A DNA stretch of 48,422 nt from Escherichia phage ETEP102: the sequence record OR979723.1, one strand, 5' to 3'. The position numbers were made by a program, and so were the translations under genes. The notes under the pieces are model-generated. The model saw only the letters and a program-made list of their open reading frames with translations, was not told the origin of the DNA and made no database searches. Shown in pieces: positions 623-44,134 of this stretch. Position 1 is the first letter of the stretch. Each line of letters opens with the position of its first letter.

Positions 623-890
623 GTTGTCTAAGTGTGGCATCTGTCAAATTTGATAATATCCCCCACTAATATATAAGAGAGCCATTCCGCCAGGATAATA
701 GGGCCATATGCAGACAATCACCTTTCAGTATGCGTTACACGATATACCGCCTACTTACACCAGTCGTAGCGAGGCCTCCAAGGCGGAAATGTTTCCCGAC
801 CTGTTTTTTACATGCGATTACGGTTGACTTACGCGTTAACTCCCATCATAATTGCCTCACTTAAACGCAACAATCAAATGAGGTAACGAG

Positions 891-1987: not shown

Positions 1988-2199
1988 TGATTATAAAATG
2001 TGTGTATGTAAGGCAAGCCAATCACCACAACCTTTCAGTTGTAAATGGTGGGATATACTCGGCAAAGCCAATCCCTCGCTTTAATGGCTCATACTACATC
2101 AAGGTTGATGGCAATGAGTACATAGTGAAGACGATAGGTGAAGCTCTTATGATAAAGAGCCTTGGTGTGATAATGGCTAAATTCGAAATCGTTCGTTAA
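1987..2199 (+). CDS. hypothetical protein (70 aa)
   Basis: ORF; start overlaps upstream stop (TAATG). Confidence 0.4.
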   Translation: MIIKCVYVRQANHHNLSVVNGGIYSAKPIPRFNGSYYIKVDGNEYIVKTIGEALMIKSLGVIMAKFEIVR

Positions 2200-2217
2200 T
2201 AGCACGAATTGCTAAAC
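2199..2217 (+). promoter_or_regulatory. ATAGCACGAATTGCTAAAC motif copy
   Basis: Palindromic core TAGCA-N5-TGCTA directly after stop codon; 22 nt from TTGCTA to TATGAT (2237-2242); gene ATG at 2273. Confidence 0.5.
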
Positions 2218-2272
2218 AACAAATCGGGTAGTCAGCTATGATTACCCTATCAAAAACGAAGAGGAAATGATT

Positions 2273-2479
2273 ATGGAAACTGTACGCATTGACGATGTTC
2301 ACTTTGACCAAGCAGAGGTCAGCGTTCTGCTCAATCGGACTGGAGTAGTCAAGGCCGTAGTCTCCATTGACTTCGATACTGACGATCAGGGCGTTACCAT
2401 GATGCACTACACACCAGAACAAGCACGCAAGCTGGCGGCAGCGCTTATCCTGGCAGCAGAAGAGGCAGAAAATCAATGA
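2273..2479 (+). CDS. small protein, tandem paralog A (68 aa)
   Basis: ATG 2273 with AGAGGA 7 nt upstream (track start 2267); C-terminal YTPEQARKLAAALILAAEEAE shared with next gene. Confidence 0.5.
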   Translation: METVRIDDVHFDQAEVSVLLNRTGVVKAVVSIDFDTDDQGVTMMHYTPEQARKLAAALILAAEEAENQ

Positions 2480-2694
2480 GAGACATTCGAGTTAACTCAT
2501 CATGGAATCAGGAAACAGAAATCTCAGTAATCAAGGTTCCGTTCGGAAAGATGCGTAAGCGCGTGCACCTGGACCTTTCGCCGGATTCGCAAGTGGATGT
2601 CGCTGGCATGACATACACCGCAGAGCAGGCGCGCGAACTTGCTGCGGCGCTAATTAAGGCAGCTGAGGAAGTGGAGGCGGAAGTCGATGAGTAA
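2476..2694 (+). CDS. small protein, tandem paralog B (72 aa)
   Basis: ATGA start/stop overlap with paralog A; C-terminal YTAEQARELAAALIKAAEEVE. Confidence 0.5.
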   Translation: MRDIRVNSSWNQETEISVIKVPFGKMRKRVHLDLSPDSQVDVAGMTYTAEQARELAAALIKAAEEVEAEVDE

Positions 2695-2887
2695 ATTCAG
2701 GATCGCATTGATTGACACAACAACCGCCTTCGGTCATCCGGTCAAGTGGTATGACGTCCAAAAACGGGTGGCTTTGTTCTGGTGGGTTACAGTGGCCCAT
2801 GCAAGCCAGCTTTCCCAGGCTCGCTACTGGCTGCATAAGTCCGGCGCACCGCATCGCAAAGAGAAAGTAGTGAGGATTATCGAATGA
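2687..2887 (+). CDS. hypothetical protein (66 aa)
   Basis: ORF overlapping neighbours by a few nt (translational coupling). Confidence 0.35.
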   Translation: MSKFRIALIDTTTAFGHPVKWYDVQKRVALFWWVTVAHASQLSQARYWLHKSGAPHRKEKVVRIIE

Positions 2888-3174
2888 AGAAACTAATTTT
2901 ACTGGCAGCACTTGCTCTGGCTGGATGTGATTTCGGAAGCACCCGTGTAGATTCAGAGGCTCGGCAGAAGATGCCAGTGAATGTCAACGATCGCGTCCAG
3001 GTTGTGAAGATTCAGGAGTTCAGTGATGAACTGGCATACGAGAACGTCAGAGCTATATACGTCATCACCGATAAGGACACTGGTCAGGAATATATCGGCT
3101 TAAGCGGTGTCGGGATCGTGGAAGTTGGTCGCCATGGTTGCGGCAAGGGATGCTCCAGAGAAGATGAACGATAG
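2884..3174 (+). CDS. putative lipoprotein (96 aa)
   Basis: N-terminus MKKLILLAALALAGC: signal peptide plus lipobox LAGC. Confidence 0.55.
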   Translation: MKKLILLAALALAGCDFGSTRVDSEARQKMPVNVNDRVQVVKIQEFSDELAYENVRAIYVITDKDTGQEYIGLSGVGIVEVGRHGCGKGCSREDER

Positions 3175-3189
3175 CACTTTTGTTAAAAC
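3171..3189 (+). promoter_or_regulatory. ATAGCACTTTTGTTAAAAC motif copy
   Basis: Overlaps TAG stop of upstream gene; 22 nt to TATAGT (3208-3213) inside hairpin GGAGAC/GTCTCC; ATG at 3255. Confidence 0.5.
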
Positions 3190-3254
3190 TTGCTCGGAGA
3201 CATTAGCTATAGTGTCTCCTGTCAAGTGAACACAAACCAACTGAGGAATCACAT

Positions 3255-3413
3255 ATGAACAGCATCAACCGTTATATCCCTGTGTCAGTGCCAACCAGCG
3301 TCAATATTCACGGCGTCGGAATGCAAGCCTGCGACGATGGAGCATGGGTATCCTACGCAATGCATAAAAAAGAAATCGAGTCCTTACAGGCGCGTTTAAA
3401 GGCCTTAGAATAG
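3255..3413 (+). CDS. small hypothetical protein (52 aa)
   Basis: ATG with GAGGA 8 nt upstream, downstream of motif/hexamer module; below the 60-aa cutoff of the ORF track. Confidence 0.4.
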   Translation: MNSINRYIPVSVPTSVNIHGVGMQACDDGAWVSYAMHKKEIESLQARLKALE

Positions 3414-3494
3414 ACTCAAAAACATCAAATTTCTGCACCGTCGATTATCGCTGACCATGTTGAGCAGGCAATCAAAGAAGCTGTAGGTAAGCTG

Positions 3495-4061
3495 GTGCAC
3501 GAAGCATGTGAGCAATTACTCAAGGATTTGCCTAAGTACAATGGCGATCCGTGTCACAGCACTGTCGATGCATTCGTTAGTGAAATGGCAAAAGCTCCGG
3601 ATGATGGCGTGAAGTGTTATTACCTTGTCGCAGATGAATTGACGAAGAACGGCAAGTTCACTTTCGGTAGCAATTTCGGTGAAGGCAAGGCGCTCACCAT
3701 GTCAACCGCGAAAATGGAACCACGCATCGGCGGTTACGGGTATGGCAATCGTCACGTATGGGCGGTTGGTGAATGTGAATCAGCACGCGATCGCAAGGTG
3801 GCAGTTTGCTACCATGTTAATAACGGCAGTGCGTTTATCAATGGTTGCGAGTACGCGTATGAAATTGATGAATGCGAACCAGGTTGCGAGCCTCGCCTTA
3901 TCCATATCGCACAAGATGCATTCATCTCTGATTTAAAAGGCGATTACCGATGGAAAGCAAAGAGAATTGGTAAGGTTATGAATGCCAAGGCAACGCTAGG
4001 TGACGCATACGCAATAGTAAATCCTGATTGCGGCGTAGTGGCTAAGTTCTATATCAAATAG
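3495..4061 (+). CDS. Cys-rich hypothetical protein (188 aa)
   Basis: ORF in track; first codon is GTG (in-frame TAG three codons upstream), an internal ATG start is possible; many Cys/Gly residues. Confidence 0.45.
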   Translation: MHEACEQLLKDLPKYNGDPCHSTVDAFVSEMAKAPDDGVKCYYLVADELTKNGKFTFGSNFGEGKALTMSTAKMEPRIGGYGYGNRHVWAVGECESARDRKVAVCYHVNNGSAFINGCEYAYEIDECEPGCEPRLIHIAQDAFISDLKGDYRWKAKRIGKVMNAKATLGDAYAIVNPDCGVVAKFYIK

Positions 4062-4076
4062 CACCTTTTGTTAAAA
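4058..4076 (+). promoter_or_regulatory. ATAGCACCTTTTGTTAAAA motif copy with extended -10
   Basis: Overlaps TAG stop; about 24 nt to TGGTATAAT (4095-4103); ATG at 4135. Confidence 0.5.
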
Positions 4077-4134
4077 GGGGTGGTTCATCCTGACTGGTAT
4101 AATCCCCACATCAACCACACGAAAGGATAGCAAC

Positions 4135-4278
4135 ATGCCGCATCAGCAGAGTAACAACAAGTCATGGACCAAGGCCGCAAGGGCTAAGCGTCGCGGTGAA
4201 CTTAAAGATTTCTTTATCAGTGCAGGCCACACACGTAAAGTGGCATTACAATTAGCCAAACAGAGCGAGAAACAATAA
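4135..4278 (+). CDS. small basic protein (47 aa)
   Basis: ATG with GAAAGGA upstream; MPHQQSNNKSWTKAARAKRRGELKDFF...; stop overlaps next start (TAATG). Confidence 0.4.
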   Translation: MPHQQSNNKSWTKAARAKRRGELKDFFISAGHTRKVALQLAKQSEKQ

Positions 4279-4895
4279 TGAATCAGCTTTACACCATGAT
4301 TAAGCATCACCTTCAAACGGTAGCGGTAAACAAGAAAGTTTACATCTTTGATTACGATGGTACTCTGTCGGACAGAACGCACCGCCTGCACAAGCTACCG
4401 ACAAAGGATTTGCGCCTCACTGAGTCATGGCTTGAATTTAACTCATTGAGCAAGTTCGATCGGCCATTCCAGGAAACGATTGACGTAATGAATAGCCTGT
4501 TCGCTTCCGGAGCTTTCATCATCGTGCTCACTGGTCGATCTGATGCGGTTGTTGAGGAATCAACGCAATGGCTGCATGATGCTGGCGCTAAATATAACGT
4601 TCTGGTCATGCGCCGGGCTGATGACAACCGAAAGGATACCATCATCAAGGAAGAGTTTTTACGATACATTGGCTTGCACCGCATCACCGCAGCGTGGGAT
4701 GATAGCGTTAACGTTATTAAGCACTTCCGAAGCCTCGGAATCACTACCTATCATGTGTGCGACTATGGCGATAACGTGCACTCCGCCCTTAAGTCTCACG
4801 GCGTAGAAAAAGTTTGCGAGCACGAATTTAGCGAGCCGCTACCTCCGCATGGTGTTCGCCAGTGCAAAAAATGCAATCTCGTAAGCGGTAAATAA
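4278..4895 (+). CDS. HAD-family polynucleotide 3'-phosphatase (T4 Pnk phosphatase-like)
   Basis: DxDGT motif (IFDYDGTL), LTGRSD, RRADDNRKDTIIKEEF, AWDDSV: pattern of the T4 Pnk C-terminal phosphatase domain as recalled from memory. Confidence 0.65.
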   Translation: MNQLYTMIKHHLQTVAVNKKVYIFDYDGTLSDRTHRLHKLPTKDLRLTESWLEFNSLSKFDRPFQETIDVMNSLFASGAFIIVLTGRSDAVVEESTQWLHDAGAKYNVLVMRRADDNRKDTIIKEEFLRYIGLHRITAAWDDSVNVIKHFRSLGITTYHVCDYGDNVHSALKSHGVEKVCEHEFSEPLPPHGVRQCKKCNLVSGK

Positions 4896-4944
4896 AACTA
4901 ACCTTAACGGGCGCACATCGCGCCCACTACTCAGGAATATAAAA

Positions 4945-5562
4945 ATGTCAAAGATTATCATTCTAAACGGTCCTGCTGGCGTAGGTAAAGACACGATCGG
5001 CAATGCACTGGCAGCAGATTACAACTGCATCCCTACCAGCTTCAAACGTCCGATGTTTGAAATTGCAGCATCCATCCTTGGGGCCAGGGATTTTTCAAAG
5101 TTCATCACAGCATACGACGACCGCGATCAGAAAGAGCAGCCTCAGGGCTTTCTCGGTGGCAAGACCTGCCGTGAGTTCATGATCTGGATTAGCGAAACAG
5201 TGGTCAAGCCGCTTTTTGGCAATCAGCAGTTCGGCAAATTGATGAGCGAACATATCCGTCTGTGTGATGAAGGATTCTGTTTTGTTTGCACTGATGGCGG
5301 GTTCCCTGACGAAGTGATCCAACTCCTTGAAGATGGTCACGATGTCACCCTGGTTCGCCTATTCATGGATGGCAAGACTTTCGATGGCGATAGACGTGAT
5401 TACATTCGTCTTAAGGAATTGTACTACCCTTATTACAAGAAATATAACGAGCATGATGTGCATCTGGTTAATGGTGATATTGAAGGCGGTGTGCTGTCGG
5501 TTGTTAGAGCTTGCGGTATCCGTCCTGCAATCGACGAGTGGGCCGACGATATTCCCTGGTAA
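4945..5562 (+). CDS. P-loop kinase (candidate polynucleotide 5'-kinase partner)
   Basis: Walker A GPAGVGKDT near N-terminus; adjacent to phosphatase gene. Confidence 0.55.
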   Translation: MSKIIILNGPAGVGKDTIGNALAADYNCIPTSFKRPMFEIAASILGARDFSKFITAYDDRDQKEQPQGFLGGKTCREFMIWISETVVKPLFGNQQFGKLMSEHIRLCDEGFCFVCTDGGFPDEVIQLLEDGHDVTLVRLFMDGKTFDGDRRDYIRLKELYYPYYKKYNEHDVHLVNGDIEGGVLSVVRACGIRPAIDEWADDIPW

Positions 5563-5580
5563 ATAGCACGAATTGCTAAG
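5563..5580 (+). promoter_or_regulatory. ATAGCACGAATTGCTAAG motif copy
   Basis: Immediately after TAA stop; 22 nt to TATAGT (5601-5606); ATG at 5636. Confidence 0.5.
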
Positions 5581-5600
5581 CCCGCTCCGGCGGGTTTTGT
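5581..5600 (+). terminator. hairpin plus T-run (terminator-like, embedded in promoter spacer)
   Basis: CCCGC-TCCG-GCGGG followed by TTTTGTT. Confidence 0.45.
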
Positions 5601-5635
5601 TATAGTTAGTTCACACCAAACGAGAGGAAACAAAG

Positions 5636-5794
5636 ATGATTACTATCAACCTGTCAGACAAGCAAGCCGCCACACTGAAATATTTACTCGCAAGCCAGCC
5701 TATGCATTTCTCGGCCGATGAGTACTACGAGATGGTCAAAGAGGTTCACACTCAGATCAACAATCAACAATTCGACGAAAACGAAGGTGAATAG
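5636..5794 (+). CDS. small hypothetical protein (52 aa)
   Basis: ATG with GAGAGGA 7 nt upstream; MITINLSDKQAATLKYLLASQ... Confidence 0.4.
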   Translation: MITINLSDKQAATLKYLLASQPMHFSADEYYEMVKEVHTQINNQQFDENEGE

Positions 5795-5958
5795 CCATGA
5801 AGTTCAATAAGACCGAGAAGAAAAGTTGATCGCATCAATGATAAGCGCCGCCACCGCCGACTCTGCCGACAGTACGGTAAACTTCGATTCAATGAGCCTG
5901 GTATGTTCTGCTTTATCGCTTGGCGAGCAATGAAAGATATTGCGCGAAACCATAAGCG

Positions 5959-5979
5959 ATAGCACTTTTTGTTAAAAAC
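5959..5979 (+). promoter_or_regulatory. ATAGCACTTTTTGTTAAAAAC motif copy
   Basis: 22 nt to TATAGT (5997-6002) inside hairpin GGGGTA/TACCCC; leader CCATCGAAAC; ATG at 6033. Confidence 0.5.
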
Positions 5980-6032
5980 AATTCACGGGGTAGCGGTATA
6001 GTTACCCCATCGAAACTAACGAGGAAGCAGAA

Positions 6033-6254
6033 ATGAAAATTGAAATTATCGACGTTGACTACCAGGTAGATCAGATCGATCAGGGGGTTCTCACACTGCG
6101 TGAATGTGGTTTTCAGGTTGGCGATGTAGTAGAGGTATCCGGTCACTACGTTAATGGAGACTTGTCGATTCAGGCAATCCGTGAAACGGAGCTGGTTAAG
6201 GTCGGCAATGAAATCAGTATCAGTGATCATGAATACAAGGTGGTTGAGGAATGA
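6033..6254 (+). CDS. hypothetical protein (73 aa)
   Basis: ORF with GAGGAAG upstream. Confidence 0.45.
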   Translation: MKIEIIDVDYQVDQIDQGVLTLRECGFQVGDVVEVSGHYVNGDLSIQAIRETELVKVGNEISISDHEYKVVEE

Positions 6255-6589
6255 TTTACATACACACATACGGCGTCGGCAAGTTCGGTAAAGAAATACA
6301 CCGAACCGTCCACGACACGAAGGAATCAGCAGAATCGGCACAAAAAGTTCTCGGCGGTGAGTTCAAGGCTTACCGCGACGCAGAAGACTCTGTTGAATGC
6401 TGGCAGATTGAGCACGTGCGCAATATGCTGGAAAGTGAAGTGTCAGAGCTTATCGATAACATGACGAGTCACAGCCCTGGAGGACCATGGGAAGAACCAG
6501 GCTCACCGGAATGGTATTGTGCAAAGGTTGACACAATGAACAAGATCAGCAAAATCATTGATGAGGTGTACAAATCATGTTTGGATTAA
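6251..6589 (+). CDS. hypothetical protein (112 aa)
   Basis: ORF, ATGA overlap with upstream gene. Confidence 0.45.
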   Translation: MIYIHTYGVGKFGKEIHRTVHDTKESAESAQKVLGGEFKAYRDAEDSVECWQIEHVRNMLESEVSELIDNMTSHSPGGPWEEPGSPEWYCAKVDTMNKISKIIDEVYKSCLD

Positions 6590-6816
6590 CTGACCAGCAG
6601 ATGAACGCAGTAAAGGCCAAGGCCAAGCAATTAAACGCAGAATACAGCGCCCTTGATAAGAAGACCCGCAAGGATGATAAGCTGGTTGCGTCAATTATTA
6701 ACAAGCACCACGAGCCAGTATCAGTACTCATATCTCGCGATAAATTCGTGTGGATCGCAGGTTATCTCAATGGACTGGTTGGCAAGCGTGAAAATGGAGA
6801 TAGTATTTATGAGTAA
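6577..6816 (+). CDS. hypothetical protein (79 aa)
   Basis: ORF overlapping upstream gene end. Confidence 0.4.
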   Translation: MFGLTDQQMNAVKAKAKQLNAEYSALDKKTRKDDKLVASIINKHHEPVSVLISRDKFVWIAGYLNGLVGKRENGDSIYE

Positions 6817-6978
6817 ACTCAAAAAGCTCATTGACAGCCATCTCACTGACTGGTATCTTTAATCACGTACACAAGAGGCTACCAAGTAGCAACGAGCGGT
6901 TCGTAAGCCGCATGTGCAGTGAAGCAAATCGAGGCATTGTGAAAGCCTTACGGATTCCGTAACCGTAACTCATTCAAA

Positions 6979-7053
6979 GCTCCGCTAGCTCAATTGGATA
7001 GCAGCAACGACCTTCTAAGTCGTATGTTACTGGTTCGAATCCAGTGCAGAGCG
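6979..7053 (+). tRNA. tRNA-Arg (anticodon TCT), encoded CCA follows at 7054-7056
   Basis: Hand-folded cloverleaf: acceptor 6979-6985/7046-7052 (one C-A mismatch), D-loop with GG, anticodon stem 7007-7011/7019-7023, loop CTTCTAA, T-loop TTCGAAT. Confidence 0.75.
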
Positions 7054-7060
7054 CCAATTT

Positions 7061-7159
7061 CTCGGCGTTGCTAATATTGGCCTTAGGGTGGAGCTTATAC
7101 CTCCATAAAGCAATCGACAGATAATCGATGTAATGCAGGTTCGATTCCTGCCGCCGAGA
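7061..7159 (+). tRNA. atypical 99-nt tRNA-like gene, anticodon TAT (Ile, AUA) if folded canonically
   Basis: Perfect 7-bp acceptor 7061-7067/7152-7158, T-arm GCAGG-TTCGATT-CCTGC, encoded CCA 7160-7162, anticodon stem-loop TGGAG-CTTATAC-CTCCA; 29-nt region between anticodon and T arms with its own hairpin. Confidence 0.4.
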
Positions 7160-7177
7160 CCAATAACGAGGTTTGAT

Positions 7178-7357
7178 ATGTTCAAAGTCAAGCTGACGAT
7201 ATTGCTGATGGGCCGCACGTGCGCATCATGTAAACAGAACTTTGAGACAACCGTTCAGGCATTAAATGCCGAGGAAGCAGTTTCAAAGGCAAAGAAAATG
7301 AGCGGAGTCGATACGACGACTCACAAATTTTTAGTTAATTATGTAAGTGGTATATAA
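7178..7357 (+). CDS. hypothetical protein (59 aa)
   Basis: ATG 7178 with ACGAGG upstream; MFKVKLTILLMGRTCASCKQNF... Confidence 0.4.
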   Translation: MFKVKLTILLMGRTCASCKQNFETTVQALNAEEAVSKAKKMSGVDTTTHKFLVNYVSGI

Positions 7358-7578
7358 TGCTGACGTTTGTTTATGGTTTCTTGTTCGCTTCCGTCCTTAT
7401 CGTTTCGATGTCGTGCGCTTGGGATTCTCGGATTGTTAAGCGCGGGTTTCTTGCTCAGGCGCGATACGATGAGAAGAAAAAAGAGTGGCGCGTAGCCTGC
7501 AAGTTCATCTCAGTATTCAAAGAGATCGACGACATCCGATCGGGGCGGAAGCCTGGGGCCATAAAATACGTTGACTGA
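7357..7578 (+). CDS. putative membrane protein (73 aa)
   Basis: Hydrophobic N-terminus FVYGFLFASVLIVSMS; TAATG overlap. Confidence 0.4.
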   Translation: MLTFVYGFLFASVLIVSMSCAWDSRIVKRGFLAQARYDEKKKEWRVACKFISVFKEIDDIRSGRKPGAIKYVD

Positions 7579-8235: not shown

Positions 8236-8748
8236 ATGATTAATGCAAAGCAGTTGCCAGACCTATCAATTCTAAACCATATATTTGATTATGATCCTGA
8301 GAGCGGCGTGCTTTACTGGAAGAACCCAACCAGTAAGAGGGTGAGGCCTGGCCGTGAGGCTGGAACGCTGCATAAACCAAGTGGAAGGTTACAGGTTCAA
8401 ATATCAGGTAGCATCTACAAAGTATCAAGAGTTGTGTTTTACATGCACTACGGAAGGCAACCAGAAGGAGTTGTTGACCATGTTGATCACAACACTCTGA
8501 ACAACAGGCCTGATAATTTAAGGGATGCCACGATGAGTCAGAACGGAATGAATAAATCAATGCAGTCAAATAATACATCTGGATATAAAGGCGTTAGCTT
8601 CCATAAAGGCAGGGGTGAGTTTATAGCTTACGCAAAAGTTGACGGAAAGATGGTGTTTGGTGGGTGGCATAAATCAGCGATAGACGCCGCTTACTCAGCA
8701 GCAAATCTAAGAGAAAAATTGCACGGAGAATTTGTACATCATGGCTAA
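8236..8748 (+). CDS. HNH homing endonuclease
   Basis: VVDHVDHNTLNNRPDNLR HNH core; YKGVSF...FIAYAKVDGK AP2-like tail; inserted between terminase genes. Confidence 0.8.
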   Translation: MINAKQLPDLSILNHIFDYDPESGVLYWKNPTSKRVRPGREAGTLHKPSGRLQVQISGSIYKVSRVVFYMHYGRQPEGVVDHVDHNTLNNRPDNLRDATMSQNGMNKSMQSNNTSGYKGVSFHKGRGEFIAYAKVDGKMVFGGWHKSAIDAAYSAANLREKLHGEFVHHG

Positions 8749-10321
8749 CAAAATATTGATTTGGGAAGAATTGACGCAAAGGGAAAAGTCGGTAGTGAAG
8801 GTGATGAGCGAAAGGTCTTTTAGTGATTTTATGCGCATATGGTTCGCTTTGATACAGGCTCAAAAGTTTAGGTCTAATTGGCACTTCAACTACCTTTGCT
8901 GGAAGGTTGAGCAGATAATCAACGGTGAGATACAAAACATCATATTCAACATTACCCCAGGCTCTGGCAAGACTGAGATCTTCTCCATTCACATGCCAGT
9001 GTATTGCATGTTCAGGAGCGAGAAGATAAGGAATCTTAACCTCTCATTCTCTGATAGTCTCGTTAAGGATAACGGGATCAGGACGCGTGAGATTATCGGG
9101 TCTGATGAGTTCCAGGAGCTTTGGCCATGCAAACTAGCAAAGGCTTCAGGTGGTGACATTACCGCTCTAAACTCAAAGGAAAAGGCATGGTTAACTCTAA
9201 CTTCACGTGCGATCGGTGGTCAGGTAACTGGTAAGCGTGGCGGTTATATGGATGATGGCTTCACCGGAATGCTGACGCTTGATGACCCTGAGAAGCCGAA
9301 AGACCTATACTCAGCAGTAAAGAGAAAGGCTGGTCACACGCTGCTAAAGAACACCGTTCGATCGCGAAGAATGAATGACAAGACACCATGCGTTGTTGTT
9401 CAGCAGCGACTACACGTAAACGATGCGACGTGGTTCCTGATGAATGGCGGCATGGGTGGGATGGAGTTTGAGCAGGTAATCATTCCGGCTCTGGTAACTG
9501 AGGAATACAGAGACACGCTTCCTGACTGGTTGAAAGAAGAGTTTGACCGCGACGTTTTATCGTCAGAGCCTGTTGAGATTGATGGTGTTAAGCATTATTC
9601 ATTCTGGCCTGCAAAAGAAAGCGCGCAAAGTTTACTGGCGTTACGCGAAGCTGACCTGTACACCTTCGAGTCTCAGTATCAGCAAAAGCCTATCGCGCTC
9701 GGTGGTAACGCATTCAAATCGGAATGGTTCCAGTATTACGGCGATGGTGAGAAAGCCAGCATGCCAAAACCTGAACGATTCGAGTACCTTTTCACCACTG
9801 CGGATACAGCTCAAAAGGCTGAGGAGATACACGACTACAGCGTATTTGTTTTGTGGGGTAAGTATAAGGATCGCATTTATTTCATTGATGGCATACGCGG
9901 AAAGTGGGAAGCTCCAGAGCTTGAGAAGATGGCATTGAACTTTTACGGTAATTGTTTCAAGTGGGCCAAGGAGAATCGGGTGTCACTTCGCAGGGTTTAC
10001 ATTGAAGACAAGGCAAGCGGAACGGGCCTGATCCAGTCAATCAATAAGAAGCTGCCTATTGACATTACGCCAGTTCAGCGAGATACAGATAAGGTTACTC
10101 GCGCAATGGATGCGGCACCAATCATGAAGGCAGGGCGGATCGTGTTTCCAGAATCACATCCAATGCTTACCGACATGGAGGCGGAACTCATTGGGTTCAC
10201 ATTTGACGATAGCCATCCTCACGATGACATCGTGGATAACGTGGTTGACGCTGGCAACTTCGAAATGAACTTGCTTGACGATCCTGTAGCGAGAATGAAG
10301 CGACTGGCGGGACTTAAATAA
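8741..10321 (+). CDS. terminase large subunit
   Basis: Walker A-like ITPGSGKTEIFS; 527 aa; ATG 8741 (track start TTG 8732). Confidence 0.8.
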   Translation: MANKILIWEELTQREKSVVKVMSERSFSDFMRIWFALIQAQKFRSNWHFNYLCWKVEQIINGEIQNIIFNITPGSGKTEIFSIHMPVYCMFRSEKIRNLNLSFSDSLVKDNGIRTREIIGSDEFQELWPCKLAKASGGDITALNSKEKAWLTLTSRAIGGQVTGKRGGYMDDGFTGMLTLDDPEKPKDLYSAVKRKAGHTLLKNTVRSRRMNDKTPCVVVQQRLHVNDATWFLMNGGMGGMEFEQVIIPALVTEEYRDTLPDWLKEEFDRDVLSSEPVEIDGVKHYSFWPAKESAQSLLALREADLYTFESQYQQKPIALGGNAFKSEWFQYYGDGEKASMPKPERFEYLFTTADTAQKAEEIHDYSVFVLWGKYKDRIYFIDGIRGKWEAPELEKMALNFYGNCFKWAKENRVSLRRVYIEDKASGTGLIQSINKKLPIDITPVQRDTDKVTRAMDAAPIMKAGRIVFPESHPMLTDMEAELIGFTFDDSHPHDDIVDNVVDAGNFEMNLLDDPVARMKRLAGLK

Positions 10322-28893: not shown

Positions 28894-28966
28894 TATACGC
28901 GTAACCGATGTAACTCGATGTATACAATATCATCCGCGGAAAATGATATACGCGCTGTTACGCCAA

Positions 28967-29056
28967 TTTACGCATTGGTTACATTAAAATATCTATATAT
29001 ATCAACCTTTTACTCTTATTATTATTATATATATATTACTGTGTATATCATGTAAC
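28967..29056 (+). repeat. AT-rich ~88-bp element, copy B
   Basis: TTTACGCATTGGTTACATTAAAATATCTATATATATCAACC...ATTATTATTATATATATATTACTGTGTA...GTAAC. Confidence 0.6.
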
Positions 29057-29322
29057 TACTTCTATAGAGTGTTCCGCTTATAAATTTCTAATATGTACAT
29101 TTATACAGTGTTTAGTCACACGCACACCAATGCACCATCTGTTGAAAATGATATACACGATATACAAGCTATTTACATTGAGCTATGGCTGGTCCTGATA
29201 GCCTTTTTATGTAACTAACACCAATGTATACATCGAATTACAGCTATATACGTGTAACCACTTGACTAATGCGACTAAGCGAGTATAGTTAGCCACATCA
29301 ACAACAAGTGAGGATTAAAGAG

Positions 29323-34606: not shown

Positions 34607-35080
34607 TTACTCTTTAGCTTTTCGTGCTGCTTCGTTAGCGGCCTTAATCTTGCGCCACGATCGACATTCTGGCTTCGTAGCTAATTCAGCATCAGTAACA
34701 ACGCGCAGCATGTGACGTTTTTTGCACCGGAGTGTCAGCGGCTTTCCGTTGCCATCGAATTGCAGATCCGGTCGGCAAAAAGTCGCGCGAAAACCCTCTC
34801 CAGTTCGCTTGTATCGGTTGTGCGCCAGTTGAGCGCCTCGGGCCGACATCATGCCCCTCTTGAACCATTCCTCAACCGCCTGGCGACTAACCTTCAGTTG
34901 CTTTGCGATATTGGCCTTCGTTCCGTAGAAGTCGAGAACCATCTCCAGTCGCGCCAGAAGCCCGGCCTTTACTTCATCTTTTAAAACGTAGTAACCTGAA
35001 GGTCGTTTTCGTTGCTTTTTGTCTTCAGTTCGGACTGTTCCGTTGTTGCCGTTAATGGTTCGCTTGTCGACTGCATTCAT
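34607..35080 (-). CDS. HTH DNA-binding regulator
   Basis: Helix-turn-helix ANIAKQLKVSRQAVEEWFKRG; basic tails; divergent from helicase gene. Confidence 0.5.
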   Translation of the reverse strand: MNAVDKRTINGNNGTVRTEDKKQRKRPSGYYVLKDEVKAGLLARLEMVLDFYGTKANIAKQLKVSRQAVEEWFKRGMMSARGAQLAHNRYKRTGEGFRATFCRPDLQFDGNGKPLTLRCKKRHMLRVVTDAELATKPECRSWRKIKAANEAARKAKE

Positions 35081-35172: not shown

Positions 35173-37275
35173 ATGGCTATGCGCATTAAATCCATCAAAA
35201 AACAGATAGAGGAACTCGGTCCTCAGAAGATAAAAGAAATTCAGGATAAGTTTACCTTTGGTGACATGGTTCCGTATGAGTACCAGTGCGTGATGTATGA
35301 TGAGATCGGCAAGCGCATTGCTCGCTATAAGCATCCATTCATTGTTAAGGCTTCCGTATCTGCTGGTAAAACAATTGGCTTTGCCATGATCGCGTCTCGA
35401 GTTAAAGAGATGGGACTTTCAATGATGATACTTGCGCGCCAGGGCGACATCGTCGCTCAGGATAGCGAGGAGATCTCAAACTTCGGCGTTCCAAACTCTG
35501 TTTACTGTGCTGGCCTGAATACAAAATCCGCATACTTCCCTATAGTTGTAGGATCGGAAGGTTCAGTGGCGAACGGTCTATTCAAGGCTCTGGGTGACTT
35601 TACTCCAATGGTGCTGGGTATTGATGAATGTCACCAGGTAGACTGGGAAGACCTTGCTGCAGCCATCGGCAATGAAGAAACGATTGAGATGATGCTAACT
35701 GAAAAGGATGAGCGAGTATTCATTGATTACCCTAAAAATCGCGATGGTTATGTCAATGGTTATCTTAATGGCGTAGAGGTTGGCGCCCAGGTAATGGATA
35801 AGCAATTGCTAATCAGCCGGAAGACTGGCGAGCCTGTGTTGGGAACAAAGCGAAGCCAATACACGATCATAATCACTGAGCTAATGAGGCGCTGCAAAGA
35901 GAAGAATGGCAAGGAATTAAGGATATTCGGGATGACTGGTTCTGAGTTCAGAGGAACAGCTCCAATCGTAGTTGACAACCCAAAGCTACCTGGATTCTGG
36001 CGTGAGCAGGTGACTAATATTGACACAAATTACCTTATTGAGTTCGGATCTGTGGTTCCGACTGTTTTTGGTAGTGTCGGTGATGCTGGTTATGATCTTG
36101 ATGAGTTCAAGGCATCAAGTCAGGACGGCACGGCTGACTTCAGCCAGAAAGATATGAAGGCGATGGAAAAGAAAATCCATGACAACGCCAGCATGACCAA
36201 GCGAATCATGGAAATGGTTGTTGAGGAGGCAAAGAAGCGAAACGGGGTTCTTATTACATGCTCAGGGCAGCGCCACTGCAAAGAGGCAGCGAGCTATCTG
36301 CCACCTGACGCCACCTATGAGATCATCACCGAGAAGACAAACACCAAAAAGCGACAAGCAATACTGGAAGCGGCTAACCGTGGTGAAATTAAATACATTT
36401 TCCAGGTTATAGCGCTAACTACTGGAGTTAACGTTCCGTTTTGGGATTTCTCAGTCATCCTGCGTAAGATTGGTTCTCTTACACTACTGATCCAGCTTCT
36501 CGGTCGCGGAATGCGATTGCTTAAACCGTGGCAAAAAGCAATGGGTATGGTTAAGGAAGATCACCTTGTGTGGGATTTCGCGGGTTGCATGGACGAGTTA
36601 GGTCAGTTATACTTTGACCCCATCCTTGAGGAATCACAGTATCAGCGCCGCTTTGACGGTAAGAAAGAACCGAAGAAATGTGAGTTGTGCGGAACTGAGA
36701 ACAGTTTTTACGCTCGCCGTTGCATTCACAGAGACGAAAACGGCAATCGTTGTGAGTATTTCTGGAAGTCTCGCGTATGTGAAGACCAGATTGATGATCG
36801 CACTGGCGAAGTGCTCGCTAAGGGTTGCGGAACTGAGAATGACGTAGTTGCTAGAATATGCCGCTGCTGTGACGTGAGCTTGAAAGACCCCAATGACAAT
36901 CTGACTGGTAAGGCTTACACAAAAAACGACTGGTGCACAGTTAATAGCTTTGAAGTGACGCTGACGAGAAATCAGACTGGTATTCTTTATCGTTACGACC
37001 TTACCGACTCGATGGGGGTTAACTTCATTGCTTATGAAAAATTTTTCCCTCAATCAACGGCGCAGGTATGCCACACGATATGGAAACAAAAAGGTGTATT
37101 GCCTCATGTGCATGACAGCAAGATCGCAAAGTTAATGGCAGCTTACAGAAGTGCGAAAATGATTTTAAACAACGCTCACCACATAGCACATCCGGTGCGG
37201 GTAACACACCGAAAAAATGCAAAAGGTGATGATATTATTTCACGTAAAGATTTCGGATTGGATGGTAACTTATGA
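35173..37275 (+). CDS. SF2 DEAD/DEAH-box helicase with C-terminal Cys-rich domain
   Basis: Walker A SAGKT, Walker B GIDECHQ, C-terminal CELCG...CIHRD...CRCC cysteine clusters. Confidence 0.75.
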   Translation: MAMRIKSIKKQIEELGPQKIKEIQDKFTFGDMVPYEYQCVMYDEIGKRIARYKHPFIVKASVSAGKTIGFAMIASRVKEMGLSMMILARQGDIVAQDSEEISNFGVPNSVYCAGLNTKSAYFPIVVGSEGSVANGLFKALGDFTPMVLGIDECHQVDWEDLAAAIGNEETIEMMLTEKDERVFIDYPKNRDGYVNGYLNGVEVGAQVMDKQLLISRKTGEPVLGTKRSQYTIIITELMRRCKEKNGKELRIFGMTGSEFRGTAPIVVDNPKLPGFWREQVTNIDTNYLIEFGSVVPTVFGSVGDAGYDLDEFKASSQDGTADFSQKDMKAMEKKIHDNASMTKRIMEMVVEEAKKRNGVLITCSGQRHCKEAASYLPPDATYEIITEKTNTKKRQAILEAANRGEIKYIFQVIALTTGVNVPFWDFSVILRKIGSLTLLIQLLGRGMRLLKPWQKAMGMVKEDHLVWDFAGCMDELGQLYFDPILEESQYQRRFDGKKEPKKCELCGTENSFYARRCIHRDENGNRCEYFWKSRVCEDQIDDRTGEVLAKGCGTENDVVARICRCCDVSLKDPNDNLTGKAYTKNDWCTVNSFEVTLTRNQTGILYRYDLTDSMGVNFIAYEKFFPQSTAQVCHTIWKQKGVLPHVHDSKIAKLMAAYRSAKMILNNAHHIAHPVRVTHRKNAKGDDIISRKDFGLDGNL

Positions 37276-37769
37276 TTATAAACTTTGTCGAATACAAAGA
37301 TGGTGGGCTCTACTGGACTAAACCGTCAGGGCCAAGGGCTAGAGTTAGCATTGGATCAAGGGTAGGTCACGTAAATCGTGAAGGCTACAGGGTATTCAAG
37401 TTCGAAGGCGCTCACCTAAAGGAGCATAGGGTGATATGGTATATACATAATGGTGAAATACCAGAAGGGATGGAGGTTGATCACATAAATCACGAAAGGG
37501 ATGATAATAGAATTTCAAACTTAAGACTAGTTAGCAGATCCGACAACATGAAAAATACATCAATAAGAAAGTCGAATAGTAGCGGATTTACTGGTGTTAG
37601 TTGGTGCTCAACCAGTAAAAAGTGGAAGGCTCAGATACAAGTAAACGGAAAGAAAATATCGTTAGGTTACTTTAGTGATATTGATTTAGCTATAAGTGCA
37701 AGAACCGAGGCGAATATTAAATATAACTTCCACGACAATCATGGTGGCAAAAATGGCTATAAAAGATAA
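37272..37769 (+). CDS. HNH homing endonuclease
   Basis: EVDHINHERDDNRISNLR core and TGVSW...WKAQIQVNGK tail, paralogous to 8236-8748; ATGA overlap with helicase stop. Confidence 0.8.
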   Translation: MIINFVEYKDGGLYWTKPSGPRARVSIGSRVGHVNREGYRVFKFEGAHLKEHRVIWYIHNGEIPEGMEVDHINHERDDNRISNLRLVSRSDNMKNTSIRKSNSSGFTGVSWCSTSKKWKAQIQVNGKKISLGYFSDIDLAISARTEANIKYNFHDNHGGKNGYKR

Positions 37770-39388: not shown

Positions 39389-39619
39389 ATGGAAAAGTTG
39401 CAATTTGATTTAACTGAGCAGGCTCAGTTCCTTTTGTTTCGCGGTCTTGTTTGCACGGCTCTTACAAAGGCTGGGTTCAAGGGTGATGCTTGGGTATTCT
39501 CAAATCTTGACATGTCATTTGAAGAGGTCCAAGGCACTCCATTTGAATCATGGTCAAGATCAATAGCAAAAGATCTCGCAGACTATAAGCGCGATTGCCC
39601 TGAGGATTTTCACGAATAG
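39389..39619 (+). CDS. hypothetical protein (76 aa)
   Basis: ATG 39389 with GGAG upstream. Confidence 0.4.
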   Translation: MEKLQFDLTEQAQFLLFRGLVCTALTKAGFKGDAWVFSNLDMSFEEVQGTPFESWSRSIAKDLADYKRDCPEDFHE

Positions 39620-39634
39620 CACGAATTTCTAAAC
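39616..39634 (+). promoter_or_regulatory. ATAGCACGAATTTCTAAAC motif copy
   Basis: Overlaps TAG stop; 22 nt to TGGTATACT (39651-39659) in hairpin ATACCAGC/GCTGGTAT; ATG 39690. Confidence 0.5.
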
Positions 39635-39689
39635 ATACCAGCCGCTGTGCTGGTATACTTCTTTCACGCCAACGAAACGAGGAATCAAC

Positions 39690-39923
39690 ATGAAAAAGCA
39701 ACCTTTTGTTACTCACAACCACGCAGCATACCGTAACAAGGTTTTATTTCCGCACCTGCTTCGCCTGGCTAACGATAGCGCAAAGGACGCGATCGCACTT
39801 GGTAAGGACGGCGGTCTGGACGAGGTTATTGCGGTGACTTATCTCAAGGGCGCTTATGGTCACTTGCCAGTTGCTGACTATCAGGCTATGTCGGGGAGCT
39901 TTGACATTTATGGTAACTGTTGA
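39690..39923 (+). CDS. hypothetical protein (77 aa)
   Basis: ORF with ACGAGGAA RBS. Confidence 0.4.
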   Translation: MKKQPFVTHNHAAYRNKVLFPHLLRLANDSAKDAIALGKDGGLDEVIAVTYLKGAYGHLPVADYQAMSGSFDIYGNC

Positions 39924-40155
39924 GGTTGGGCGTCAGGCAGTGTGGACGCACTGCAAAGAAGCCGGAATAAGTGAAGACATCGCGCTTATATCCAAGTATT
40001 TTGATATCAAAGACATATGCGTCATATTCAACGGTAAGATGACGTATATACATGAAAGGCCGCGTAAGCTGATCAGAGTTCCTGCAACTCCTGTGAAGAT
40101 TGACTACAAGGCTTGCATTCAGGCGACAAAAGACGCCGCGAGGAGATACAAGTGA
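39910..40155 (+). CDS. hypothetical protein (81 aa)
   Basis: ATG 39910 overlapping upstream gene end (track start 39856). Confidence 0.35.
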   Translation: MVTVEVGRQAVWTHCKEAGISEDIALISKYFDIKDICVIFNGKMTYIHERPRKLIRVPATPVKIDYKACIQATKDAARRYK

Positions 40156-40403
40156 ATTTACCAGGGCTTGATTTTGACGCTGGAATTTATCCTACGTGTA
40201 GCAATAATGATGAGACGTTCGCAATTATCCATTTCTCTGACTGGTTGCCTTCAGACTTCGAAGATGTGCCATGTTCGCGCGGCGGCGGGTATCGACTGAT
40301 GTATTTCAGCCCGTCAACTGGTATGATGGTTCCAAGCGAATCAGAGATAGCAGGCGAGGCGGTTGAGCCAAATACTTTGACAACATGGTTGAAAAAGATT
40401 TGA
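40113..40403 (+). CDS. hypothetical protein; start uncertain (GTG 40152 possible)
   Basis: ORF in track; possible GTGA-coupled start. Confidence 0.3.
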   Translation: MHSGDKRRREEIQVNLPGLDFDAGIYPTCSNNDETFAIIHFSDWLPSDFEDVPCSRGGGYRLMYFSPSTGMMVPSESEIAGEAVEPNTLTTWLKKI

Positions 40404-40474
40404 TGCGCTGCTTAATTGCTGTATTATTGCCGCCGATAATTGGTTTTATTATCATCTACTTAATAACACGATAA
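40403..40474 (+). CDS. very small hydrophobic peptide (23 aa)
   Basis: TGATG-coupled ORF MRCLIAVLLPPIIGFIIIYLITR in the 80-nt gap before the next gene. Confidence 0.25.
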   Translation: MRCLIAVLLPPIIGFIIIYLITR

Positions 40475-40484
40475 GGATTTAAAA

Positions 40485-41627
40485 ATGGCTATTCAGAAAA
40501 TTAGTGACGAACAATTCATTGCCGAGCGCGAAGCTGGTAAAACTCTACGTCAAATAGCTCAAGAATACGGTATGAATATTCGAACTGTAGAGCAGCGTTC
40601 AAGTCGCCTCGCGAAGCGTGGAGAGTTTCACGGAAACAAGCACGTAAGCGTACATGTTCCAGAAGGGTTTCAGGTTAAAGGTACATCGACAATGATTCGA
40701 GCCGATGGCTCAGAGGTTGTGCGGTGGGTAAAGACAGATCAGGACAAGGAGAAGTTAGCCGCCATGATGGATGCCGCGATTGAAGCATTCTGTGAAGAAA
40801 TCCCACGCGCAGATCCTCAGCCTATTCTTGGCGAGCCTAACTATGATGAGAATCTCCTGGCACTGTATCCAGTGTTCGATCTACACATCGGCGCAATGGC
40901 ACACAAGCATGAGTGCGGTGAAAACTACAGCACCGACATCTCTGAGAAAGTCCTCAAGAACTTCTTTGATTACTCGGTTGGCGTAGCTCCTAAAGCAAAG
41001 AAAGCCGTATTGCTAATCGGTGGTGACTTCCTTCACTCTGATGGCCTGGACGCTGTAACGCCCGCAAGCGGTCACGTACTGGATCAGGATAGTCGATACG
41101 CTAAGCTCGTGCATGTTGCAATTCGTTCCGTCCGCCGCGCTGTGGCAAAAATGCTGGATAAACACGAGGATGTCGAAATTCAGATCATTGAGGGCAATCA
41201 TGATCAGGCGGGAATGATTTGGTTGCGTGCTGCCATGGCTGCATACTTCGAAGATGAATCGCGCGTAAAAGTTGACGTATCCCCAATGATTCTCCACCGA
41301 ACCAAGTGGGGTAAGACGCTACTCGGATACACTCATGGTCACACCATGAAGAAGGCTGACACTCGACTGGCGGCGATGGCAACAGATTTCCGTGAGGAGT
41401 TCGGGACCAGTAAATATATCTATACGCATAGCGGCCATTGGCACCATCAGACGATCACGGAAGGAACTTTGGGAATTGATGAGGTTCACGGTCAACTAGG
41501 AGCAAAAGACGCATATGCGGCTCGCGGCGGATGGCGCTCTTATCGACAGGCAGCTGTGATCTTGTATTCAAAAGAGTTCGGTGAGGTTGGTCGATTCGTT
41601 TACCGTCCAGAGATGAGTGATATTTGA
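40485..41627 (+). CDS. calcineurin-like metallophosphoesterase with N-terminal HTH domain
   Basis: Phosphoesterase motifs DLHIG, GGDFLHSD, EGNHDQ, GHTH, GHWHH; N-terminal HTH-like GKTLRQIAQEYGMNIRTVEQ. Confidence 0.6.
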   Translation: MAIQKISDEQFIAEREAGKTLRQIAQEYGMNIRTVEQRSSRLAKRGEFHGNKHVSVHVPEGFQVKGTSTMIRADGSEVVRWVKTDQDKEKLAAMMDAAIEAFCEEIPRADPQPILGEPNYDENLLALYPVFDLHIGAMAHKHECGENYSTDISEKVLKNFFDYSVGVAPKAKKAVLLIGGDFLHSDGLDAVTPASGHVLDQDSRYAKLVHVAIRSVRRAVAKMLDKHEDVEIQIIEGNHDQAGMIWLRAAMAAYFEDESRVKVDVSPMILHRTKWGKTLLGYTHGHTMKKADTRLAAMATDFREEFGTSKYIYTHSGHWHHQTITEGTLGIDEVHGQLGAKDAYAARGGWRSYRQAAVILYSKEFGEVGRFVYRPEMSDI

Positions 41628-41645
41628 TAGCACTTTTTGCCTAAC
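41627..41645 (+). promoter_or_regulatory. ATAGCACTTTTTGCCTAAC motif copy
   Basis: Follows TGA stop; 22 nt to TATATT (41665-41670) in hairpin TAGCGCC/GGCGCTA; ATG 41698. Confidence 0.45.
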
Positions 41646-41697
41646 ATGTAGCGCCGATTGGCGCTATATTTACATCTCACTATCAGAGGATTCAATC

Positions 41698-41871
41698 ATG
41701 GTTAAATTGTTTTGCATTAAGAATACATCTAAGACACTTCCTTTCACTGTAAACAGTCCATACATCGGTGAGTATCAGGGTGACGGATACTACAAGATTT
41801 ATGGTGACGATATGACGTGGATTTTAGCGCCGATTAATGGTTCGCTTGTTGAATTTATTATTGCAGATTAG
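41698..41871 (+). CDS. small hypothetical protein (57 aa)
   Basis: ATG 41698 with AGAGGA upstream (track start 41617). Confidence 0.4.
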   Translation: MVKLFCIKNTSKTLPFTVNSPYIGEYQGDGYYKIYGDDMTWILAPINGSLVEFIIAD

Positions 41872-41897
41872 CGTATCCAAAACATAGCGTTACAAGC

Positions 41898-41923
41898 GGG
41901 GAGCCTTTTGGCTCCCCTTTTTT
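41898..41923 (+). terminator. rho-independent terminator
   Basis: GGGGAGCC-TTTT-GGCTCCCC then TTTTTT. Confidence 0.7.
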
Positions 41924-43609: not shown

Positions 43610-44134
43610 TTAGCGCCCGTGGTTATGGTGGAATTTAAGCCTTGCCCTAGCATCAATCACGGCCTGGCAGGCATCATCAAACAGGTAAAAAGTTCCTAGT
43701 GCAATTCTTTTACCGCTCAGGGATATTCTGGCCTTGAACTTCCCGTTCTTTTCAATCGTAACGCCAGGGAATCCGCTGGTGTTATTCTTATATACACTTT
43801 TGTTTTTTGAGTTATCTTGAGCCGATACAAGCCTGAGATTTACTCGTCTATTATCCATTCTATTATGATTTATGTGGTCAATCTGCATCCCCTTCGGTAT
43901 TTCACCCTCTCAAATATTCCATATTACAACGTGATTTGTCAGCCTCTTACCACCATAATCGAAACGCCTATAGCCACCTCTTGACTTATTGCCGCAATAG
44001 TTACCTTCTATCGCGGTTGGGTTTATTGTCCTAAGCCAGACTAAATCAATACCATCATAACCAATGTCAGGATAGCAATCGTGGGTTAACATATACCTTG
44101 TCTCCAATTGTGCAGGTGTAATATTTCTCATCAA
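43610..44134 (-). pseudogene. HNH homing endonuclease interrupted by in-frame TGA (43910-43912)
   Basis: Track ORFs 43910-44134 and 43610-43888 are in the same frame; joined reading ...HVVIWNI-stop-EGEIPKGMQIDHINHNRMDNRRVNLR matches intact paralog ...HRVIWYIHNGEIPEGMEVDHINHERDDNRISNLR. Confidence 0.6.

Follow-up and report, generated by a model that had tools for sequence, protein, structure and literature searches.

What does a metallophosphoesterase (MPE) fused to a helix-turn-helix (HTH) domain do just ahead of the lysis cassette of a T1-like coliphage? The question is raised by a 380-aa coding sequence on the + strand of Escherichia phage ETEP102 (Drexlerviridae; OR979723.1), at positions 40485-41627 of a 48,422-nucleotide stretch that is referred to, in full, as the window. 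Based on an invariant active site, a nuclease-like core, a widely kept HTH and neighbouring genes of DNA and nucleotide metabolism, a DNA-directed phosphodiesterase, i.e. a stand-alone DNase, is the best-supported mechanism predicted from sequence and structural models. We infer DNA as the substrate, and likewise the biological role and the way in which cleavage proceeds (its polarity and its products). The phage family to which the protein belongs, as an ordinary member, is very large, catalogued and experimentally uncharacterised. The gene itself is unsurprising; a moderate degree of interest comes from the size of the family, its core status, its automatic annotation and an odd linkage to the lysis cassette.

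An invariant metallophosphoesterase active site

An ATG start, backed by homologues that align from residue 1 and preceded by a Shine-Dalgarno-like element, confirms the gene proposed in a preliminary description of the window. Its features are as follows.

40473-40477 (+): Shine-Dalgarno-like AAGGA, 7 nt upstream of the ATG, read from the sequence
40485-41627 (+): HTH-MPE coding sequence, 380 aa, from the list of open reading frames (ORFs); PHROG 704
40485-40619 (+): three-helix HTH domain, residues 1-45, basic and fast-evolving, from models, Pfam and relatives
40668-40799 (+): beta-hairpin, residues 62-86 (W81-V-K83-T), and helix 88-105, joining the HTH to the core
40845-41624 (+): MPE catalytic domain, residues 121-380
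40878-40886 (+): MPE motif I, D132-L-H134, read from the sequence
41022-41036 (+): MPE motif II, G180-D181-F-L-H184
41040-41096 (+): family-specific conserved loop after motif II, D186...T192-P193...L199-D200-x-D202-x-R204
41193-41204 (+): MPE motif III, G237-N238-H239-D240
41334-41342 (+): MPE motif IV, H284-G285-H286
41433-41447 (+): MPE motif V, G317-H318-W-H320-H321

Residue conservation was assessed among 81 relatives, representatives of 50%-identity clusters that are 29-69% identical to the window protein. All five dinuclear-metal motifs of the calcineurin-like superfamily (DxH, GDxx, GNH[DE], H and GHxH) are present, as the preliminary description had claimed, and their key residues are either invariant (D132, H134, G180, D181, N238, H239, H284, G317 and H320) or conserved in at least 96% of relatives (H184 and H318, each 96%). 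Given that the metal ligands and catalytic histidine are invariant over the 81 relatives, the protein is predicted to be an active enzyme. The GDxxH spacing of motif II is that of the archaeal and eukaryotic Mre11 'GDLFH'. The loop that follows motif II is also highly conserved (T192 and D200, 99%; L199, 96%; R204, 95%; D202, 94%).

Searches with Pfam yielded no match of the window protein above the curated thresholds of PF00149 (Metallophos) or Metallophos_2, and at E<0.01 only 18 of the 81 relatives matched PF00149 and 14 matched PF12850. Divergence within the family exceeds what the Pfam MPE models capture, and the assignment therefore rests on fold and motifs.

Predicted nuclease-type core

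Two AlphaFold models were generated, one from close homologues only (predicted local distance difference test, pLDDT, 73.7) and a second from 139 sequences that included distant environmental relatives (pLDDT 84.4; predicted template modelling score, pTM, 0.75). The beta-sandwich MPE fold is present. Confidence for the loop after motif II was low in the model from the shallow alignment and reached a pLDDT of ~72-76 in that from the deep alignment. Since both single-sequence and profile searches of the PDB returned just weak HTH and marginal SbcD/Mre11 matches (E 0.5-2.9), a comparison of folds was needed, which scored known structures as follows.

Mre11: 14.2
SbcD: 13.8
PolD DP1 proofreading exonuclease: 13.7
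MJ0936 phosphodiesterase: 13.7
Pol delta B-subunit: 12.7
LpxH: 12.6
YfcE: 12.0
Rv0805: 11.7
PdeM-type 'nuclease MPE': 8.5
PP5 protein phosphatase: 8.3-8.6

The longest alignments (198-202 residues) were to DP1 and the Pol delta, alpha and epsilon B-subunits, which are among the best matches. As modelled, the core is a generic phosphodiesterase- or nuclease-type MPE, with nucleases marginally first and protein phosphatases clearly outside; the predicted fold alone does not fix the substrate.

A predicted N-terminal HTH in most members

The preliminary description had also proposed an HTH-like segment preceding the MPE domain. This proposal holds at the level of the family, and is weak for the window protein by itself, whose Pfam HTH matches (segment 18-37) are sub-threshold at E 0.014-0.19. 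Many relatives match HTH families significantly, including Sigma70_r4_2 (1.5e-9), GerE (2.4e-8) and HTH_38 (8e-7), with others matching HTH_23, HTH_28, Sigma70_r4 and further families. A PDB search with the family profile likewise retrieved MarR/LuxR/GerE-type regulators (E 2.8e-4 to 0.08). Both AlphaFold models place helices at residues 8-16, 21-28 and 32-44, and the isoelectric point of residues 1-60 is 9.4. Together, these findings support an HTH in the family for which DNA binding is predicted.

Some 94% of relatives have residues aligned to the N-terminal region. The HTH evolves fast, with a mean family identity of 21%, compared with 40% for the beta-hairpin and 39% for the MPE core. The strands of the hairpin are modelled at residues 62-71 and 77-86; 98% of the 81 relatives retain W81, and 84% retain K83. 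A 317-aa homologue from a Campylobacter phage has the hairpin and lacks the HTH.

A very large phage family

The window protein matches PHROG 704 ('DNA repair exonuclease') at E 7.9e-153, with residues 4-378 aligned to profile positions 2-389 of 390, and shows a distant tie to PHROG 284 ('exonuclease'; 1.1e-12). The label of PHROG 704 is an automatic annotation. Matches to the protein were found by tblastn in 2,040 of 50,697 phage genome records, 1,942 of them with at least 80% query coverage, and the hosts of these phages include Escherichia, Klebsiella, Salmonella, Vibrio, Campylobacter, Flavobacterium and Rhodobacter. At E <=1e-3, 4,627 clusters defined at 50% identity were matched, almost all of them 370-420 aa in length. 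Equal length and architecture are seen in phages as varied as Drexlerviridae, Guernseyvirinae, Dhillonvirus, Casjensviridae, mEp021-like, Vibrio, Rhodobacter and Flavobacterium phages and a member of the Autographiviridae (Nifs112). Names deposited for family members vary, from hypothetical protein, phosphoesterase and oxidoreductase to 'winged helix-turn-helix domain-containing protein', 'HTH and metallophosphatase domains containing protein' and DNA repair exonuclease.

Phages such as vB-EcoS-XT34, TH30 and CJ19 are 83-87% identical to the window in the DNA of the target region, and the homologue of Escherichia phage vB-EcoS-XT34 shares 97% protein identity. Within Drexlerviridae, the HTH-MPE gene is a persistent, syntenic core gene (PMC13164509).

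Linkage to nucleotide metabolism and a proposed role of the enzyme

Genomic context was surveyed at 86 loci (denoted by L numbers), assigned to 14 groups on the basis of target-protein identity, together with six metagenomic contigs and several annotated phages; the search for related loci yielded mostly close relatives. No partner gene is conserved across the 14 lineages and 86 loci, the sole family common to more than three lineages being a mobile HNH endonuclease, nor was a conserved ATPase neighbour found in the 14 lineages. What recurs is proximity to genes of DNA and nucleotide metabolism. In Klebsiella Drexlerviridae the MPE gene is followed by a PNK-type HAD phosphatase and then a deoxynucleoside monophosphate (dNMP) kinase, and in L091, which represents a distinct group, a PNK-type HAD phosphatase lies directly 3' of the MPE. 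Dhillonvirus/Jersey-like phages encode a dNMP kinase directly 3' of the MPE, while L100 and L099 have, respectively, a dNMP kinase and a dGTP-diphosphohydrolase-like gene preceding it. The T7-like Pantoea phage Nifs112 combines a 5'-3' exonuclease, HNH, endonuclease VII, HTH-MPE, phosphatase, dNMP kinase and DNA ligase in this order. DNA-processing neighbours also appear in L102, where endonuclease VII comes after the MPE, and in Campylobacter phage F372, where a DNA ligase comes before it. The adjacent pair of HAD phosphatase and dNMP kinase, found directly 3' of the HTH-MPE gene in several phage families, occurs at the loci below; in the window, at 4278-5562, it lies away from the HTH-MPE gene.

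4278-4895 and 4945-5562 (+), window: HAD phosphatase (DxDGT motif) and dNMP kinase
6160-7226, L018/L020: HAD phosphatase and dNMP kinase pair
4169-5361, L103: HAD phosphatase and dNMP kinase pair

The HAD protein shares a motif-I region with T5 Dmp (BLASTP E 0.007), an anti-Kongming dNMP phosphatase (bioRxiv 10.1101/2024.12.20.629578). Degradation of host DNA by phage T5 requires A1, a predicted metallophosphatase that also suffices for it (bioRxiv 10.64898/2026.04.02.716235).

By analogy with T5 A1, our leading, if still tentative, reading is that the window protein is a stand-alone, DNA-tethered DNase whose breakdown of DNA feeds nucleotide salvage. It would be a two-metal (probably Mn2+) phosphodiesterase, with a core like those of the Mre11, SbcD and PolD-DP1 nucleases, that is held on DNA by its basic N-terminal HTH and acts alone, without a Rad50-type ATPase, in the DNA and nucleotide economy of the phage. 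Its targets, the host chromosome and/or DNA that is unpackaged or branched, would be converted to 5'-mononucleotides, which the phage dNMP kinase and HAD-type nucleotide phosphatase would then handle. Such an enzyme would be a functional analogue of the T5 A1 metallophosphatase without belonging to the same family. We favour bulk breakdown and salvage because, in unrelated phage families, genes for dNMP kinase, phosphatase and pyrophosphohydrolase recur directly beside the MPE gene. If correct, a nuclease supplying dNMPs to the phage kinase and phosphatase would explain the use of host DNA by T1-like phages, would offer a Rad50-free model of an Mre11-like enzyme, and would allow predictions of the phages that set off, or evade, defences sensing products of DNA breakdown.

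Several points weigh against this reading. Other nucleases encoded in the window (RecE-like exonuclease, HNH and VRR-NUC) could degrade host DNA. Degradation of host DNA by T1 belongs to an older literature from which we retrieved no source, and searches on this subject, and for escape mutants mapping to the family, returned nothing relevant; similarly, no biochemical or genetic work on any PHROG 704 member was found in the literature searched. Homology of the family to T5 A1 was considered and rejected, with hmmsearch giving a non-significant 1.7 bits, and hhalign a probability of 24% (E 8.5e-4) over 67 columns spanning motifs IV-V only. Finally, the temperate phage mEp021, which possesses an integrase and repressor, carries its MPE homologue in the replication module, a location that fits replication or repair better than destruction of the host chromosome. 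This module (L095, 2893-8862) comprises a replication protein, a Zn-ribbon protein, HTH-MPE, HNH and a DnaB-like helicase; the homologue of the mEp021-like coliphages is 59% identical to the window protein and was deposited as 'hypothetical protein'.

The same location, with the gene between a replication initiator/Zn-ribbon protein and a DnaB-like helicase, is the strongest support for the main rival, a possible though less probable explanation, under which the protein would be an accessory nuclease of replication and recombination that acts not on bulk DNA, but on phage DNA ends, hairpins, stalled or branched intermediates and concatemer junctions, as a Rad50-independent counterpart of Mre11/SbcD or a DP1-like 3'-5' exonuclease. 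Consistent with such a role, a DnaB-like helicase lies directly 3' of the gene in the L045 group, and other neighbours include a single-stranded DNA-binding protein (in a Vibrio phage), a DNA ligase and Holliday-junction resolvase (in a Campylobacter phage; in Campylobacter phage F372 the ligase precedes the MPE) and endonuclease VII (directly following the MPE in L102), as well as RusA, VRR-NUC or RecA-dependent nucleases within 3 kb. The presence of DP1 and the polymerase B-subunits among the best fold matches, with the longest alignments, also agrees with this explanation. Conversely, L101 has its own SbcC/SbcD-like pair besides the PHROG 704 protein, no partner gene is conserved over the 14 lineages, and this rival leaves unexplained why dNMP kinase, phosphatase and pyrophosphohydrolase genes are repeatedly linked to the MPE gene. 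Were it true, the family would represent a new component of siphophage replication modules.

A more far-reaching form of the DNase reading, which we regard as rather unlikely in its entirety, is that PHROG 704 represents a Rad50-independent, HTH-guided DNase present in ~4% of phage records, constituting the missing nuclease of host-DNA degradation and salvage in T1-like and many other siphophages, and acting late to clear host and unpackaged DNA before lysis, hence its co-inheritance with the lysis cassette. A late DNase of this kind would also decide if these phages set off defences such as Metis or PUA-Cal-HAD, which sense mononucleotides from degraded host DNA.

The preliminary description had raised an anti-defence role through degradation of cyclic nucleotides. 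More broadly, the protein might be a phosphodiesterase or diphosphatase of small molecules, such as cyclic oligonucleotide signals, deoxynucleoside tri- or diphosphates (dNTP/dNDP), Ap4A or NAD-derived molecules, which would serve to remodel nucleotide pools or counter defences. We consider this unlikely, although the predicted fold would allow it: nearly all members keep a predicted DNA-binding HTH, the gene is part of a persistent syntenic core rather than a variable accessory, and searches of the window protein with PADLOC and NCBIfam, and against known signal-degrading families, gave no meaningful match. The anti-defence proposal gains no support from a persistent core gene with matches in 2,040 records, a predicted DNA-binding domain and neighbours in DNA and nucleotide metabolism, a profile that differs from the one usual for accessory genes of anti-defence.

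Promoters and the lysis cassette

Copies of a promoter-associated motif in the window, and sites and genes near the HTH-MPE gene, are listed below.

2200, 4059, 5564, 5960, 30361, 33562, 35094, 38169 and 39617 (+): copies of the motif TAGCAC-N3-TTG(C/T)TAA, from a motif search
28875, 46138 and 47740 (-): copies of the same motif, from a motif search
3171 and 41627 (+): variant copies of the motif
34607-35080 (-): PHROG 2856 'transcriptional regulator'
35173-37275: helicase, upstream of the HTH-MPE gene
39617-39659 (+): nearest upstream motif promoter (motif at 39617-39632), TAGCACGAATTTCTAA followed by TGgTATACT (extended -10), from motif search, promoter scan and sequence
41627-41670 (+): variant motif promoter (motif at 41627-41644) overlapping the HTH-MPE stop codon, repeat family D1
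41698-41871 (+): SH3-like ORF of 57 aa, PHROG 4788, between the HTH-MPE gene and the holin gene
41898-41917: strong terminator-like hairpin, GGGGAGCC-TTTT-GGCTCCCC and a T-run, between the SH3-like ORF and the holin gene

A partly palindromic motif, TAGCAC-N3-TTG(C/T)TAA, was identified in 12 copies versus 0.12 expected, positioned ~70-80 bp upstream of early and middle genes; the TTGCTA within it looks like a -35 box. The preliminary description had the HTH-MPE gene expressed from one of these promoters, which can be maintained only in an indirect form. The 81-nt gap upstream of the gene holds no copy of the motif and only two 9-of-12 sigma-70-like matches. Three small ORFs separate the gene from the nearest upstream copy, which lies at 39617, ~870 bp away, and apart from a hairpin at 39635-39656 in the promoter spacer, no terminator-like site was found on the + strand from 39617 to 41898. 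From this arrangement, the gene is probably the distal member of an operon transcribed from the 39617 promoter, after the three small ORFs. In some other Drexlerviridae (loci L030, L031, L041 and L043) a copy of the motif is found 140-270 bp upstream of the homologous gene. Every Drexlerviridae locus retrieved contains the motif, and no locus from another phage family that carries the protein has it.

The HTH was considered as a binder of the motif and rejected, since the motif is restricted to Drexlerviridae and the protein is far more widespread. As a separate observation, the PHROG 2856 'transcriptional regulator' is a candidate binder.

As previously described, the gene stands just before the lysis cassette, with the SH3-like ORF first, followed by holin, endolysin and spanin. 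The PHROG 4788 ORF matches the stand-alone SH3/DUF7244 protein of phage KanT1, and a module of exonuclease, SH3, holin, endolysin and spanin is kept in 39 of 42 Tunavirus genomes and classed as persistent (PMC13164509). The variant promoter at 41627, within which a promoter scan detected CTAACA-18-TATATT at 41641-41670, would from its position serve the SH3-like ORF and lysis genes, not the HTH-MPE gene. Because the terminator-like hairpin at 41898-41917 precedes the holin gene, the lysis genes may rely for their expression on read-through or on another promoter.

At least eight lineages that are very divergent show adjacency to the lysis cassette, with the MPE on one side or the other. The MPE precedes the lysis genes in Drexlerviridae, L097 and L099, and follows them in Dhillonvirus-like L064, L101, L102, Rhodobacter phage RcLkye and Vibrio phage 98E28.6a; among the lysis-adjacent loci (the window, L003, L004, L064, L097, L099, L101 and L102) the cassette is found at differing parts of the genome. 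This adjacency may reflect a module boundary or late co-expression.

Such a location might also suggest a transcription factor, in which a sigma-region-4/GerE-like HTH binds a promoter or RNA polymerase and times the late or lysis genes, with the MPE as an enzymatic or sensing module. This explanation draws on the matches of relatives to Sigma70_r4_2, GerE and Sigma70_r4, on the adjacency to lysis genes across divergent lineages, on a putative SH3/lysis-gene promoter that begins at the HTH-MPE stop codon, and on the reported interaction of T5 A1 with host RNA polymerase. We nonetheless judge it quite improbable, as the Drexlerviridae promoter motif is missing from the loci of every other lineage carrying the protein, the lysis genes precede it in L101, L102, RcLkye and Dhillonvirus, the invariance of the catalytic residues suggests that selection acts on catalysis, and the window has a separate, dedicated regulator in PHROG 2856.

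Protein phosphatases were another option of the preliminary description. A lambda-PP-like Ser/Thr/Tyr protein phosphatase would belong to the same superfamily, and lambda NinI has a similar position, its nin region preceding Q and the lysis genes. This reading is very improbable and effectively excluded by fold and motifs, the window protein lacking the PPP (lambda-PP type) signatures GDxVDRG and GNHE, PPP-specific fold elements, and any clear homology to a housekeeping-type phage protein phosphatase.

Other features of the loci

Between the helicase at 35173-37275 and the HTH-MPE gene, the window encodes HNH, VRR-NUC-like and Dam methylase genes and small ORFs, with a second helicase and a methyltransferase on the opposite strand near the HTH-MPE gene. 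HNH homing-endonuclease genes are inserted right beside the HTH-MPE gene in six lineages, a pattern that fits homing into sites beside highly conserved genes.

4317-4997, L040: HNH beside HTH-MPE
5064-5573, L004: HNH beside HTH-MPE
6121-6597, L088: HNH beside HTH-MPE
6137-6610, L084: HNH beside HTH-MPE
6909-7412, L095: HNH beside HTH-MPE
37272-37769, 8236-8748 and 43610-43888, window: HNH ORFs

DNA methyltransferases repeatedly flank phage MPE genes, including both T5 A1 homologues and PHROG 704 members, and might hint at discrimination of self from non-self through methylation. In Caulobacter phage CcrPW, one methyltransferase gene directly precedes the A1-like gene and a second lies two genes after it.

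492-4563, L010 (Caulobacter phage CcrPW): methyltransferase-flanked MPE locus
5544-6833, L003: methyltransferase-flanked MPE locus
2039-3988, L006: methyltransferase-flanked MPE locus

A metagenomic phage contig (L097) was also found to carry, at 8565-8927, a gene with an Acb2/Tad1 hairpin domain, an anti-CBASS/anti-Thoeris sponge fold, located just 3' of the lysozyme gene and 1.4 kb downstream of the HTH-MPE gene. In the window, an AT-rich, intergenic direct repeat of 70 nt (84% identical; TACGC-N5-TACGC) occurs at 525-594 and 28959-29028, with a related pair at 28931-28971 and 29136-29176; these sites may be regulatory or origin-like regions.

Comparison with known enzymes

Mre11 and SbcD, known for Mn2+-dependent 3'-5' exonuclease activity and endonuclease activity on ssDNA and hairpins, share 12-17% identity with the window protein and differ from it in architecture. 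Whereas both possess a capping domain and pair with Rad50/SbcC, the window protein ends with the MPE core, lacks a cap and a Rad50-binding region, and carries the N-terminal HTH and beta-hairpin in place of these features; nor is a cognate ATPase encoded, with no Rad50-, SbcC- or SMC-like gene among the large ORFs of the window. Since L101 encodes a separate SbcC/SbcD-like pair beside its PHROG 704 protein, the two are not interchangeable. Archaeal PolD DP1, a 3'-5' proofreading exonuclease, and the eukaryotic polymerase B-subunits share 7-12% identity with the window protein, which lacks a partner of the DP2 or polymerase kind and shows no evident full OB fold; the window of this T1-like phage encodes no DNA polymerase.

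PdeM ('Nuclease MPE'), a ligase-associated endonuclease of the DNA-damage response, is a small, stand-alone MPE nuclease acting on DNA. As it needs no Rad50, it demonstrates that stand-alone MPE nucleases exist. The window protein scores 18.4 bits against the corresponding NCBIfam model (TIGR04123), in the motif III region only, and does not reach 150 bits.

T5 A1, with relatives in 1,135 phage records, resembles nucleases of double-strand break repair and polymerase proofreading, and is reported to interact with host RNA polymerase (bioRxiv 10.64898/2026.04.02.716235). Like the window protein, it is a stand-alone phage MPE with all motifs and a non-catalytic N-terminal region, and the two have local features in common near motif III (NHD...WL) and at the C-terminus. 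They differ in that A1 is a pre-early protein of 556 aa, with a 300-aa N-terminal part and its MPE motifs in the C-terminal half, and in motif II, which reads HD in A1 and GD in the window protein; a weak HTH match was found in just one of eight A1 relatives. A1 and the HAD-type dNMP phosphatase Dmp belong to the same pre-early cluster, two small ORFs apart. While not a member of the family, T5 A1 is the nearest functionally studied analogue of the window protein.

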